Sequence record: NC_007603.1
Origin: Escherichia phage Rtp
Reading direction: 5' to 3' (one strand)
Length of the DNA stretch: 46,219 nucleotides
Shown here piece after piece: positions 15,613 through 20,220 of the stretch. Under the pieces are notes generated by a model. The model was not told where the DNA came from, did not search any database, and worked only from the letters and a program-made list of their open reading frames with translations. Numbering within the stretch: the first letter of the stretch is position 1; the number at the start of each line of letters is the position of its first letter. The translations under genes were made by a program, and so were the position numbers.

Positions 15613-16269
15613 ATGGCTCATTTATCAAACGGCACTCAGGTGCTCGTAGAAGGCTCCCGTGGTGATGCTATTGCCGTTACTGCAATCTCTAACGCCGCCA
15701 GCCCAGTCCTAACTGTTGATGATGCTTCTGGCATTGTTGTTGGTGATTACCTGCTGTTTACAGCATCTGCTTCCACGCTGCTGGCTGACAAGCAAGTTCG
15801 CGTAACTGCGGTAAGTGGCACATCTGTTACGGTAGAGGGCATTGATACCTCCAGCACCACAAAATTCCCGGCAGGTTTAACTGGTGAAGTTGTTAAGATT
15901 CTTTCCTGGTTCGAAGTTCCGTGTGTTCAGGACGTTTCCACTGATGGCGGCGAACAGCAGTTCGTTAACTTCCAGTGTCTTTCTGATGACCGTGAACAGA
16001 AGATTCCTACTTATAAGTCTGCGGTAACTAACACCTTCACTTTCGCGCATGAGTACACTAACCCGGTCTATCCGGTTCTTCGTGACTATGATGAGTCTGG
16101 TCAGGTTGTTGCGATTCGCCTGTTTGTACCTCGCGCTCAGGAAATGCGTTTGCAGTCCGGCACTATCGCTTTCAATGACACCCCGACCATTGGCGTTAAC
16201 GAAATCGAAACGGTATCCATCGCAGTATCCATTCGCGGTCGACTGTCCTCTGTGGCAGCTGAAGTTTAA
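15613..16269 (+). CDS. major tail protein
   Basis: 218 aa directly upstream of chaperone/tape-measure genes; strong terminator follows. Confidence 0.65.
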   Translation: MAHLSNGTQVLVEGSRGDAIAVTAISNAASPVLTVDDASGIVVGDYLLFTASASTLLADKQVRVTAVSGTSVTVEGIDTSSTTKFPAGLTGEVVKILSWFEVPCVQDVSTDGGEQQFVNFQCLSDDREQKIPTYKSAVTNTFTFAHEYTNPVYPVLRDYDESGQVVAIRLFVPRAQEMRLQSGTIAFNDTPTIGVNEIETVSIAVSIRGRLSSVAAEV

Positions 16270-16276
16270 AACACAA

Positions 16277-16297
16277 ACCCTCTTCGGAGGGTTTTTT
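16277..16297 (+). terminator. rho-independent terminator
   Basis: CCCTC-TTCG-GAGGG hairpin plus T6. Confidence 0.65.
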
Positions 16298-16379: not shown

Positions 16380-16766
16380 ATGAAAGCAATCATCGCAATT
16401 ATGGCAACCTTGTTACTTGCTGGATGCAACTCAGATAAAGTAAAGACACTCAACGTTGACCTCACTGCAAACGAATGCAAGAACATCGTATACAACGCAA
16501 CGGTTAACAATGAATCATTTACTCATATTTCATTCAAATACCCAGATCTAAAGGATGCCGTTATGTACGTATCGCACATTGAATGCACGAAAACTGTTAG
16601 CAACTTTACACGTGGTGTTGTGATTGAGCGCACTGCAACATTGGCAAAGGTATCAAAGCCTAGTGACGCTTCAATTGAGATGGTTTATACTAAGCTCTAC
16701 AGTTTAGAAGGTTTCGCTAAGGAAGTTGGCGAGAAGCTGGCTTACTCACGCGTTGTTATGAAATAA
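16380..16766 (+). CDS. putative lipoprotein (128 aa), moron within the tail gene cluster
   Basis: Signal peptide with lipobox LAGC (MKAIIAIMATLLLAGCNSD); own cassette promoter upstream. Confidence 0.6.
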   Translation: MKAIIAIMATLLLAGCNSDKVKTLNVDLTANECKNIVYNATVNNESFTHISFKYPDLKDAVMYVSHIECTKTVSNFTRGVVIERTATLAKVSKPSDASIEMVYTKLYSLEGFAKEVGEKLAYSRVVMK

Positions 16767-16784
16767 AATAGAGGGCAAAACTAG

Positions 16785-17099
16785 ATGGCAAAGTTCAAAC
16801 TTTCACTGGCGGCACTGCCAGACTTCAAGCTACCAGTAAAATTCAAACTGGCTAACGACCAGGATGTAGAGGTTATCTTTACGGTCAAGCACAAGAAGAC
16901 CTCAGAGCTTCAGGAGTTACTACAAAAAGAAGACTTAAGCACTAAAGAATTGATTACGGCAATCGCCTCTGATTGGGATCTGGAAGAAGAATTTAATGAA
17001 GAAAACGTCATTGAGTTTGCTGACCTATTCCCAGCTTCTACAGTTGCATTAACTACTGCTTATATGCAGGCACTGGCGGGTCAGCGAGTAAAAAACTAA
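16785..17099 (+). CDS. tail assembly chaperone (lambda G-like)
   Basis: 104 aa directly upstream of the tape measure; slippery heptamer A_AAA_AAC at its 3' end. Confidence 0.65.
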   Translation: MAKFKLSLAALPDFKLPVKFKLANDQDVEVIFTVKHKKTSELQELLQKEDLSTKELITAIASDWDLEEEFNEENVIEFADLFPASTVALTTAYMQALAGQRVKN

Positions 17100-17419
17100 A
17101 ACGAGCGGTGTATCTACAGTACCAGTCAGACCCAACCGATGCTGAACTGGAAGCTATTGGGATGCGCCGCTCTGATTACGAAGATGAAGAGCCTGAAGTT
17201 TTACACTTCGACGACAACATGATGAAGGCGTGGGACATTTATTGTTCAATGGCTACACAGTGGAGAGTCGGAGCTAACGGAGCTACAGGCCTAGATTACA
17301 GCGTGCTAAACTTCCTCTTTAGAGTGTATAATGTTTCTGAAGAAGAATTGGTGCTCAGCGATTTACGCATCCTTGAAGCTAAGGCTCTAGAGATGATGGA
17401 TAACCTGAGAAAAAAATAA
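17096..17419 (+). CDS. tail assembly chaperone -1 frameshift extension (GT-like product, in-frame continuation after slip at 17090-17096)
   Basis: -1 frame open from 17096 to 17419; ORF track 17108..17419 has only a GTG start and a weak SD, consistent with expression by frameshift. Confidence 0.5.
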   Translation, partial: LKRAVYLQYQSDPTDAELEAIGMRRSDYEDEEPEVLHFDDNMMKAWDIYCSMATQWRVGANGATGLDYSVLNFLFRVYNVSEEELVLSDLRILEAKALEMMDNLRKK

Positions 17420-17440
17420 CCCGCTTCGGCGGGTTTTCTA
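17419..17440 (+). terminator. rho-independent terminator-like hairpin
   Basis: ACCCGC-TTCG-GCGGGT followed by TTTTCTATT. Confidence 0.45.
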
Positions 17441-17454
17441 TTATGGAGGCTTAG

Positions 17455-20220
17455 ATGGCAACAAATGAATTAGCCGGAATCACACTAGCCGTAGACGTCT
17501 CGCAGGTAGACAGGGGAACGCAATCCCTACAAAAGTTTAGGCAGGCAAACCAGCAAGCCGCTTCCGGCATTAGTGAATTCGTCAATGCTGAGCAGGTTGC
17601 TAAAATCCAGGCGAGGGATACCGCTCGCGCACTGGCTGAACAGCAAGCATCTTTAGCAAGGCTGCAAACAGCTATTGATCCAACTGCGGCAAAGTTTCGC
17701 AAGCTACAAGAGGCTGCGGTAGGTCTTGATAAGGCATTTGCTGCTGGCGTAGTTCCTGATGAGGAGTTTTTCCGCTTAGGCGAAGCTCTAGAAACCCAAA
17801 ACGCAAGACTTGCACGCTCCAGAGCAGCCCTTACCGAAGAAGGTAGAGCGGCAGCGCAGGCAGCAAAGGATAAGGCAAGGGCAAAGGCTGAGGCAGATAG
17901 ATTCATCGCATCACTGCAACGCCAGGCTCAAGCTGCGACATTGACGCGCGAGGAGTACTTAAAGTTACAGGCAGCACAACTTGGTGTATCCGCAGAGGCG
18001 ACACCATTAATTAACCAGATTAGCACTGCAACCCAGAGAACTGTTGAAAATCTTGGCAGGCAAGCAGCGGCATTTCAGAAATCAGGATTAAGCGCCGGGC
18101 AATACAAGAATGCCATATCTCAACTACCGGCGCAGATTACTGATATTGGCACGTCGCTTGCTGGCGGCATTCCGATTTGGCTTATTGCAATTCAGCAGGG
18201 TGGTCAGATTAAGGATAGCTTTGGCGGCATTGCTAATACTGCGAGATTCCTCCTTTCTTATCTCAACCCGCTCACAGTAGCCGCTGGTGTTCTTGGTGCT
18301 GGCTTTGCTTACGCTGCGGTAAGCATTTACCAGAGCGAATCTGCAATAAAGGCAGCAAGAAAAGCGGTTGAGGAAACGCTTGGAGTCACGGATGAGGCGG
18401 CTAGGCAGCTAAGCATTAGCATCGCCAAGATTTCTGAGGCCTCGGGAAAGACAGCTGAAGATATCGCGAAGTCATTCGTATCAACCCGTGACGGAGCGCA
18501 AGAAGCAATTCTGAAGCTGATTGATGTTGGTGTTAGTTACGATGAAGCTAGGGAGCTTGTGGAGCGTTACAAGAATGCATCAAACTTTACCCAGGTTAAC
18601 GCGCAAATTGAGCAGCACAGACTTGAGGCTGCAAAGATTCAGGATAGCTGGTTCGAGAATGCTATGGCCGTTAGCTACTACAATGATGTTGCAGTGCCGG
18701 GGCTGGTTAACTCGCCATTAACCAATGTATCAGCAAGAAACAACGCAGCAATTCAGGAGTTTGCTATCCTTCTTGAGAAGGATGTAAACAAGGCTCTAAT
18801 TGATGGAAACCGATACGTTGCTGAACAAGTTGATTTGATTGGCAAGGAATATCTGGCACTTGATCGCGTTGCTGGAGCGGAGAAGTCACTTGCAGACGCA
18901 AGAAAACAGGCCGCAGCAATTGCAAGGAGCGGTAATGCGGAAGCTATTGCTCAAGCTAACAGAGTAATTCAGTTAAGGCAGCGTGAACTTGACGAGGCAA
19001 TTAAGGCAGAGAAAGAAAGAAATAAACCAGCAAAAACGAAAGCACCAAAGGAAGCTAGAGACCTTACCATTAATTATGAGTCGGGAGTCCTCGCTCTGGA
19101 GGCTCAGTTAAGGTTGCTTCAGAATGTAGGAAGTCAGACAAAGGCCATCAGCACTGAGCGGAGAAAGCTACTTGAGGAGGAAGCTAAGTTTGCAATCCTT
19201 GAGGAGCGCCAGGCGGCTGGTACAATCGGCAGAGAGCAGGCCAGACTTCTTCTTGAGAAAGACAAAGTTCTCGAGTTGGCCAGGCAGAAGGCTGAGCTAG
19301 GTGATCAGATTGTTTTGCAGGAACGCGCAAATAAGCTAGCTGAAGACAATAGGAAGAAGACTCTTCAGATTAACAATGAGGCAAATAACATTGATTTGGG
19401 TGCTGGTTTGTCATCTCGAGAGCAGCAGAGGGCTAAAGAGATTCAGGCTCTTCAATCCAATCAGGTTAATGCTGGTGGCTCTCTCGATGACGTCGATTTC
19501 CAGCAATTACTGGAAGCGAGAAAGCAGTACTACAAGGATGAGGATGCTCTTAGGGCAGACTGGAAAGCTGGTGTGACTTCAACTCTCGCTGACTTGACTG
19601 AGAAGTACACTGACTACAATCAGATTGCTAATGATTTAACTGTTGCGGCATTCGACGGGATAACAGAGCAAATTACAAACCTTGTAACCACTGGTGAGAC
19701 GAACTTTAGGGAGTTTACAGCAAGCATCCTGAAAATGATTGCGAAGATTGCAACTCAGTTACTTTTGGTTAAGGCCATCGAATCAACATTGACTAGCTTT
19801 GGTGGTGGGGGAGGTAACGCGTTTGGCTCATTTGCATCTGCCATAGGTTTTGCTGGTGGCGGTTACACTGGCGATGGTGGCAAGTATCAGCCCGCTGGTA
19901 CAGTTCATAAAGGTGAGTTTGTATTCACTAAGGAAGCGACAAGCCGAATCGGTGTTAAGAACCTTTACGCACTAATGAAAGGTTACGCAAGCGGCGGTGT
20001 TGTTGGCGGCCCTTCCGGTTACGCAAATGGCGGCTTAGTTTCTGGTGGCACTAATGTTGATGTTAGTGGCATCACTGTTAACGTGAACTCAGGGGTTGGT
20101 AGCGACCCAGAGCAAGCCAAAGCGTTGCAGAACGGCGTCAAGGCAATCGTAGCGGAAGAGATTGCTCAGTCATTCCAGCAGGGTGGCAAGGCCTATCAGT
20201 ACCTGCGCGGATTCAATTAA
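17455..20220 (+). CDS. tail tape measure protein
   Basis: 921 aa, Ala/Gln/Glu-rich coiled-coil composition, Gly-rich C-terminal region; after the chaperone pair. Confidence 0.9.
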   Translation: MATNELAGITLAVDVSQVDRGTQSLQKFRQANQQAASGISEFVNAEQVAKIQARDTARALAEQQASLARLQTAIDPTAAKFRKLQEAAVGLDKAFAAGVVPDEEFFRLGEALETQNARLARSRAALTEEGRAAAQAAKDKARAKAEADRFIASLQRQAQAATLTREEYLKLQAAQLGVSAEATPLINQISTATQRTVENLGRQAAAFQKSGLSAGQYKNAISQLPAQITDIGTSLAGGIPIWLIAIQQGGQIKDSFGGIANTARFLLSYLNPLTVAAGVLGAGFAYAAVSIYQSESAIKAARKAVEETLGVTDEAARQLSISIAKISEASGKTAEDIAKSFVSTRDGAQEAILKLIDVGVSYDEARELVERYKNASNFTQVNAQIEQHRLEAAKIQDSWFENAMAVSYYNDVAVPGLVNSPLTNVSARNNAAIQEFAILLEKDVNKALIDGNRYVAEQVDLIGKEYLALDRVAGAEKSLADARKQAAAIARSGNAEAIAQANRVIQLRQRELDEAIKAEKERNKPAKTKAPKEARDLTINYESGVLALEAQLRLLQNVGSQTKAISTERRKLLEEEAKFAILEERQAAGTIGREQARLLLEKDKVLELARQKAELGDQIVLQERANKLAEDNRKKTLQINNEANNIDLGAGLSSREQQRAKEIQALQSNQVNAGGSLDDVDFQQLLEARKQYYKDEDALRADWKAGVTSTLADLTEKYTDYNQIANDLTVAAFDGITEQITNLVTTGETNFREFTASILKMIAKIATQLLLVKAIESTLTSFGGGGGNAFGSFASAIGFAGGGYTGDGGKYQPAGTVHKGEFVFTKEATSRIGVKNLYALMKGYASGGVVGGPSGYANGGLVSGGTNVDVSGITVNVNSGVGSDPEQAKALQNGVKAIVAEEIAQSFQQGGKAYQYLRGFN

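Follow-up and report, generated by a model that had tools for sequence, protein, structure and literature searches.

Frameshifted tail chaperones and the Rtp locus

The -1 frameshift that links genes G and T of phage lambda is the model for tail assembly chaperones made in two lengths; it was reportedly described by Levin, Hendrix and Casjens in 1993 and by Xu, Hendrix and Duda in 2004 and 2013, and the G/GT type is said to have been defined as a class by Xu et al. in 2004. The lambda genes run in the order tube protein, G, T and tape measure, and a shift on the heptamer G_GGA_AAG, five codons before the stop near the 3' end of G, yields a short and a long isoform. This shift is commonly regarded as working without a 3' stimulator. 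The ratio of G to GT in lambda is approximately 30:1 (PMC5009743). Two E. coli systems share parts of the signal discussed below. The dnaX gene uses A_AAA_AAG together with a 3' stem-loop and an upstream Shine-Dalgarno (SD)-like element, and its shift truncates the protein. IS1 InsAB' uses A_AAA_AAC, a proven E. coli shift site of low efficiency that gives little fusion protein and has no established stimulator (PMC4066793). Among T1-like phages, the genome announcement of Klebsiella phage Skenny mentions a frameshift 'analogous to G and GT' (PMC6763657), and the record of OzMSK (PQ659294) carries a two-piece joined CDS named 'tape measure chaperone'. The frameshift considered here is thus of a well-known kind, a textbook mechanism already known for the phage family, and its novelty is low because the same site is already annotated in close relatives. 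What is new is the hairpin downstream of the site and an annotation correction for Rtp, T1 and their relatives.

The DNA analysed is the whole genome (46,219 bp) of coliphage Rtp, a T1-like phage, and is called the window here. We compared its chaperone locus (Table 1) with these systems. An earlier note on this DNA had read the end of ORF1 as A_AAA_AAC lying directly before the TAA, with the -1 frame open into an ORF2 that has only a GTG and a weak SD of its own, and had assigned the pair to the G/GT type ahead of the tape measure gene. The sequence bears out this reading and its coordinates. ORF1 ends in frame as ...CAG CGA GTA AAA AAC TAA, which places the heptamer in the canonical X_XXY_YYZ register, and the -1 frame has no stop from 17024 until the TAA at 17417-17419. 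The GTG at 17108 is preceded only by GAG, 3 nt upstream, and its distance from the ORF1 stop is 9 nt (8 intervening). A ribosome that moves to the -1 frame at the heptamer would make a protein of 211 aa, join(16785..17096,17096..17419), for which C17096 is read twice. The gene order, the protein families and the conserved sites of homologues, described below, likewise support the assignment to the G/GT type.

Table 1. Features of the Rtp tail chaperone region (window coordinates)
Feature	Coordinates	Strand	Remarks
Major tail (tube) protein gene	15613..16269	+	Pfam Phage_tail_3, E 5e-68; PHROG 584, major tail protein
G-like tail assembly chaperone, ORF1, 104 aa	16785..17099	+	Product of standard decoding
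Slippery heptamer A_AAA_AAC, proposed -1 shift site	17090..17096	+	Register read from the sequence
TAA stop of the G frame	17097..17099	+	Directly 3' of the heptamer; within the 6-nt spacer
T-like -1-frame extension, 107 codons plus stop	17096..17419	+	Pfam DUF1799; PHROG 17368 positions 108-210
GTG used as ORF2 start in the public Rtp record	17108..17110	+	103-aa ORF2 to 17419
Candidate frameshift-stimulating hairpin, 6-nt spacer	17103..17172	+	Fold energy -34.2 kcal/mol
Terminator-like hairpin plus T run	17418..17435	+	Between the T stop and the tape measure start
Tape measure protein gene	17455..20220	+	Pfam TMP_2 and Tape_meas_lam_C; PHROG 24

ORF1 is identical to CAJ42239.1/YP_398979.1 and ORF2 to CAJ42240.1/YP_398980.1, and the next-closest records in the phage collection are about 91% identical over the chaperone region. 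ORF1 belongs to Pfam Phage_TAC_4 (PF08748; E 2.6e-34, 118.5 bits against a gathering cut-off of 21.1) and the -1 extension to DUF1799 (PF08809; E 1e-15, 58 bits against a cut-off of 26). The resulting order Phage_tail_3, Phage_TAC_4, DUF1799, TMP_2 is the V-G-T-H order of lambda. The chaperone pair (16785-17419) sits between the tube and tape measure genes, with a lipoprotein ORF (16380-16766) inserted upstream of the pair. Moreover, PHROG 17368, a 213-position profile, takes in both ORFs, ORF1 on positions 1-107 and ORF2 on positions 108-210; since the profile spans the two as one protein, fused products of this family are already present in the databases. Solved structures of tail assembly chaperones include the HK97 chaperone (2OB9) and YqbN (3KLU), as well as 3FGX; a PDB sequence search with the fusion protein gave no match at E values up to 1.

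As in the G/GT class, then, the Rtp pair is located between the tube and tape measure genes, its second ORF overlaps the first and has no conserved start, the shift site lies in register within the overlap, and the layout is conserved in diverged homologues. Rtp and lambda differ in that the Rtp heptamer abuts the stop and is followed by a strong 3' hairpin. The likeness does not extend to recognizable homology of the G proteins: hhalign of a 16-sequence alignment of the Rtp-type G protein against lambda G returned a probability of 0.06% (E 0.74). By analogy, Rtp ORF1 would work like lambda G without being a recognizable homolog of it. OzMSK, about 91% identical over the region, shares with Rtp the protein families, the site and an identical GTAAAAAACTAAA, and differs in annotation only. 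With dnaX, Rtp shares an A-rich heptamer, the single E. coli Lys tRNA and a stable stem-loop a few nt downstream. However, the Rtp heptamer ends in C rather than G and is much less shift-prone in E. coli than A_AAA_AAG (PMC5009743), Rtp lacks a conserved upstream SD-like element, and its shift extends the protein. The heptamer of IS1 is identical and functions in the same host, whereas the Rtp hairpin at 6 nt is without an established counterpart in IS1 (PMC4066793) and the proteins are unrelated.

The heptamer motif alone is not beyond chance: the window has 13 copies of AAAAAAC, and 13.4 are expected. Of these copies, however, only the one at 17090 closes a long ORF in register and has a long open stretch in the -1 frame after it (102 codons upstream, a stop 2 codons later and 107 codons in the -1 frame). 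Other candidate signals were considered and rejected. The only other slip sites in the 76-nt overlap are the weak tetramers C_CCA and G_GGT, which were discarded because in phage EP23 the overlap shrinks to the heptamer itself. A dnaX-like upstream SD stimulator was sought in GGCGGG (17075-17080), 9 nt upstream of the heptamer; relatives have GGCAGG, GCTGGT or GCCGGA there, and it was dropped since the sequence is not conserved. A permissive Rfam scan of 16700-17500 returned sub-threshold chance hits only, with no frameshift element family among them.

Conservation of the slip site and limited occurrence of the ORF2 start

We gathered loci from IMG/VR (28), metagenome contigs (6) and annotated relatives in the Drexlerviridae and beyond (18), of which 42 were usable. 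In every one of these 42, an NNA codon followed by a Lys codon lies at the end of ORF1 with ORF2 in the -1 frame, and the stop comes after the Lys codon plus zero or one sense codon. The heptamer A_AAA_AAC is identical in 34 loci, with ORF1 ending GTA AAA AAC TAA (16 loci), GCA AAA AAC TAA (16) or GAA AAA AAC TAA (2, EP23 and phiES15). The other eight have A_AAG or A_AAA_G in the same place: GCA AAG GTC TAA (5 loci), GCA AAA GTT TAA (1, KP36), CAA AAG CCT TAA (1) and CAA AAG TAA (1), the CAA AAG sites being those of Border_ER3 and Koroua. The Lys is preceded by V, A, E or Q (from GTA in 16 loci, GCA in 22, GAA in 2 and CAA in 2), yet the third base of that residue's codon is A throughout the 42 loci. 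Among the genes of the window, GTA and GCA make up a minority of their codon families (28% of Val and 35% of Ala codons, respectively), and the Lys codon at the site is AAA in 35 of the 42 loci though AAG is preferred elsewhere (65% of Lys codons). Outside this set, a Ralstonia phage homologue has no Lys codon at this place and reads CGG GGA AAC TGA, that is G_GGA_AAC, one base different from the lambda heptamer. A shift-prone site and the -1 layout are kept down to approximately 30% protein identity.

Two deviating groups of sequences deserve mention in their own right. An IMG/VR clade (L011-L013, L015 and L016, at positions ~1800-1815) with GCA AAG GTC TAA has the A_AAG tetramer only and no downstream hairpin; this A_AAG clade and KP36 (GCA AAA GTT TAA) are natural signal variants within one family. 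Escherichia phage 2725-N35, a close relative (MN840485; L002, 3300-3315), has A5 rather than A6 at the slip site GTAAAAACTAAA, which places ORF2 in the +1 instead of the -1 frame and extends ORF1 to 117 aa. The shorter run is probably an error of homopolymer sequencing; a genuine difference in length at this site could also account for it.

The relatives also bear on how ORF2 is entered. It could be a separate 103-aa protein, made by initiation at the GTG at 17108 or by termination at the TAA (17097) and re-initiation 9 nt downstream, in which case no fusion would be needed. The public Rtp record starts ORF2 at this GTG, the annotators of OzMSK note that it 'also has independent RBS', and the distance from the ORF1 stop is compatible with coupling. 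However, the GTG is limited to the Rtp-like clade; all other lineages have GTA, GTT or GTC in its place. The first in-frame start of ORF2 in T1 is at +122, without an SD, and in EP23 the first 200 nt of ORF2 contain none of the start codons ATG, GTG and TTG. EP23 furthermore has a -1-frame TGA immediately 5' of the heptamer, and because this stop abuts the heptamer, the heptamer is the only place where the frame can be changed. Despite the missing starts, the -1-frame peptide KLKRAVYL, which begins at the slip site and lies upstream of any start codon, is conserved in the relatives, with synonymous codon changes (e.g., CGA, AGG and AGA for Arg). In Rtp itself the SD is merely GAG at a distance of 3 nt and the GTG is paired inside a stem of -34 kcal/mol, and independent initiation leaves the invariant NNA-AAR context unexplained. 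The conserved site, the narrow distribution of the GTG and the conserved KLKRAVYL together support a frameshift and argue against independent initiation, so that a separately translated ORF2 is very improbable and the GTG at 17108 is probably not the main entry point.

Slippage of RNA polymerase rather than the ribosome was also considered, whereby one A of the A6 run would be deleted (or two added) in a fraction of the transcripts. The site is indeed a homopolymeric run, and the A5 deposited for 2725-N35 indicates that its length changes, although that may be a sequencing error only. Productive transcriptional slippage in bacteria, however, reportedly needs longer runs in general, about 8-9 or more according to Baranov et al. 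in 2005. In addition, homologues with the non-homopolymeric sites G_GGA_AAC, CAA AAG and GCA AAG GTC keep the layout, and a 3' hairpin at 6-7 nt suits slippage by the ribosome and not by the polymerase. We regard polymerase slippage as the least credible account of the locus, with hardly any weight left to it, and ribosomal frameshifting at the heptamer as the preferred one.

The hairpin downstream of the heptamer

The earlier note had also proposed a search for a stimulatory structure downstream of the heptamer, and folding does predict a stable one there. The hairpin is long and irregular and consists of a 13-bp basal stem (17103-17115/17160-17172) followed by the helices 17117-17121/17155-17159 and 17122-17126/17146-17150, the GTG at 17108 lying inside the basal stem. 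Its minimum free energy of -34.2 kcal/mol corresponds to a z of -5.75 against dinucleotide shuffles, none of 200 being as stable, and it ranks first among the 11,536 sliding 76-nt windows on the plus strand of the whole genome. Likewise, none of 300 synonymous recodings of the same peptide reached this energy (z -4.6). The distance of 6 nt from the heptamer falls within the 6-8 nt at which stem-loop stimulators work best (PMC3458567). Folding 17097-17220 also predicts a second, smaller hairpin (17179-17210, plus strand) that directly follows the main one.

The main hairpin occurs in the Rtp-like clade alone. Its arms are the same in 13 distinct sequences of the clade, which differ in the ORF1 tail and the apical loop. 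No compensatory double changes were found among these 13 sequences, as invariant arms leave none to count. Of the single changes in the clade, two preserve pairing (A-U to G-U and U-A to U-G) and the other three disrupt pairs at the ends of helices. A metagenome scan yielded six contigs, all of the Rtp-like clade and all with invariant stems. Counting pairs across the whole family, 70.9% of the cells are paired compared to 68.2% in shuffles, with no excess of changes on both sides. The stem arms have 5 variable sites in 58 nt, which is below ORF1 but not significantly below the rest of ORF2 (0.154 per nt), and the conserved stretch runs past the stem to 17190.

Other lineages have a different structure at this place. 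In T1, TLS-like phages, Hanrivervirus, K50 and Warwickvirus, a shorter hairpin, GGCGGUU...AACCGCC, begins 6-7 nt after the heptamer, with the same 5' arm (GGCGGUU) as in Rtp and a nearby 3' arm (AACCGCC). In these T1-type hairpins, too, stability significantly exceeds that of synonymous recodings (z -2.5 to -4.4). The GC-rich 5' arm, encoded by the R-A-V codons 6-7 nt past the slip site, is shared within the Drexlerviridae and the 3' arm differs by clade, closing a local hairpin of ~30 nt in T1, TLS and Warwickvirus versus the 70-nt hairpin of the Rtp-like clade. In the regions folded for Sd1, ES and the A_AAG_GTC group, no comparable downstream structure was found.

These results can be read in two ways as far as the hairpin is concerned. 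On the predicted fold and its position, we lean slightly towards the hairpin being a stimulator of the frameshift. It is the most stable 76-nt plus-strand fold of the genome and starts exactly 6 nt past the heptamer, it is far more stable than the encoded peptide demands, and an independent, different hairpin stands at the same spacing in the T1-type lineages. It may instead be that the frameshift is real and the hairpin is an element of mRNA stability or processing, such as an RNase III site, or a by-product of conserved coding sequence. Long perfect stems are typical RNase III substrates, covariation is missing within the Rtp-like clade, conservation extends beyond the stem, and Sd1, ES and the A_AAG group keep the shift site without a hairpin. 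Such a role is the less probable of the two, though it has to be taken seriously.

If the hairpin is a stimulator, it might be an evolving, lineage-specific module in which heptamer and hairpin strength co-vary and hold the G:GT ratio constant. The clade with the intrinsically slippier A_AAG has no hairpin, though Sd1 and ES keep A_AAA_AAC, also without one, and we advance the idea only tentatively. The hairpin series across the family would provide a compact natural system for the trade-off between slippery-site and stimulator strength.

Proposed decoding and the state of the records

Taken together, the locus is best explained by a -1 frameshift that yields a short and a long tail assembly chaperone, an explanation to which we give a probability of roughly 0.9; a boost from the hairpin is likely, though by a narrow margin only. 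Most ribosomes would stop at the TAA (17097) and release the 104-aa G-like chaperone, while a minority would slip back one base on A_AAA_AAC. In a tandem slip, the Lys tRNA would re-pair from AAA to AAA and the Asn tRNA from AAC to AAA; alternatively, the Lys tRNA alone might slip, or a P-site slip might occur at the adjacent stop, and the TAA may contribute as a 'shifty stop'. A_AA.G and A_AA.A are shift-prone tetramers (PMC4066793). The mode of slipping would show in the junction peptide, VKN-LKR vs. VKK-LKR. Slipped ribosomes would then read the -1 frame to 17419 and complete a 211-aa G-T fusion whose C-terminal DUF1799 domain would otherwise be left untranslated. The hairpin may pause the ribosome on the heptamer, raising the efficiency of a site that is intrinsically weak in E. 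coli, and may at the same time bury the GTG at 17108 and disfavor independent initiation. The low efficiency of A_AAA_AAC fits the G:GT ratio known for lambda. By analogy with lambda, both isoforms would attach to the tape measure protein, and the tube protein would be recruited through the T part, with the efficiency of the shift setting a fixed low ratio between the isoforms. Production of the fusion protein is deduced here from the sequence, and a search of the literature did not find direct protein evidence for it in Rtp or any T1-like phage. The chaperone isoforms are of current interest as triggers of the bacterial Avs17 immune sensors (bioRxiv 10.64898/2026.01.04.697583).

The practical value of the analysis lies mostly in annotation, as the ORFs are separate, truncated or missing in the records of Rtp, T1, KP36, EP23 and many other Drexlerviridae. 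The Rtp record lists the pair as separate genes, without a fused product, and the T1 RefSeq (NC_005833) lists ST40 plus an ST39 cut to 55 aa. In EP23, aaroes, ityhuna and mar001J1 the T ORF is not annotated, which leaves out about 300 nt of conserved coding sequence. Records of Rtp, T1 and their kin should carry a joined CDS at A_AAA_AAC, with the join given above for Rtp. The naming of the pair is also inconsistent, and RefSeq/GenBank records often misname G and T 'tail length tape measure protein'.

Finally, several features around the chaperone genes were observed. The 16380-16766 ORF (plus strand), which follows the tube gene terminator and precedes the chaperone gene, encodes 128 aa with a textbook lipoprotein signal MKAIIAIMATLLLAGC. 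The segment is common to only 3 of 79 close relatives, most of which carry an unrelated 82-aa ORF there, and it looks like a moron. As a guess, the lipoprotein might act in superinfection exclusion, in the manner of T5 Llp or Cor. The 3' end of ORF2 (17407-17416, plus strand) reads AGA AAA AAA TAA, an A7 run after a G and ahead of the stop and terminator hairpin; with no long alternative frame behind it, the run is probably insignificant. The chaperone region is bracketed by two strong, bidirectional terminator-like hairpins, the first after the tube gene (16275-16294) and the second (17418-17435) in the 35-nt gap from the T stop to the tape measure start. Since both positions also carry annotated terminators in the T1 and KP36 records, transcription may be attenuated before it reaches the tape measure gene.
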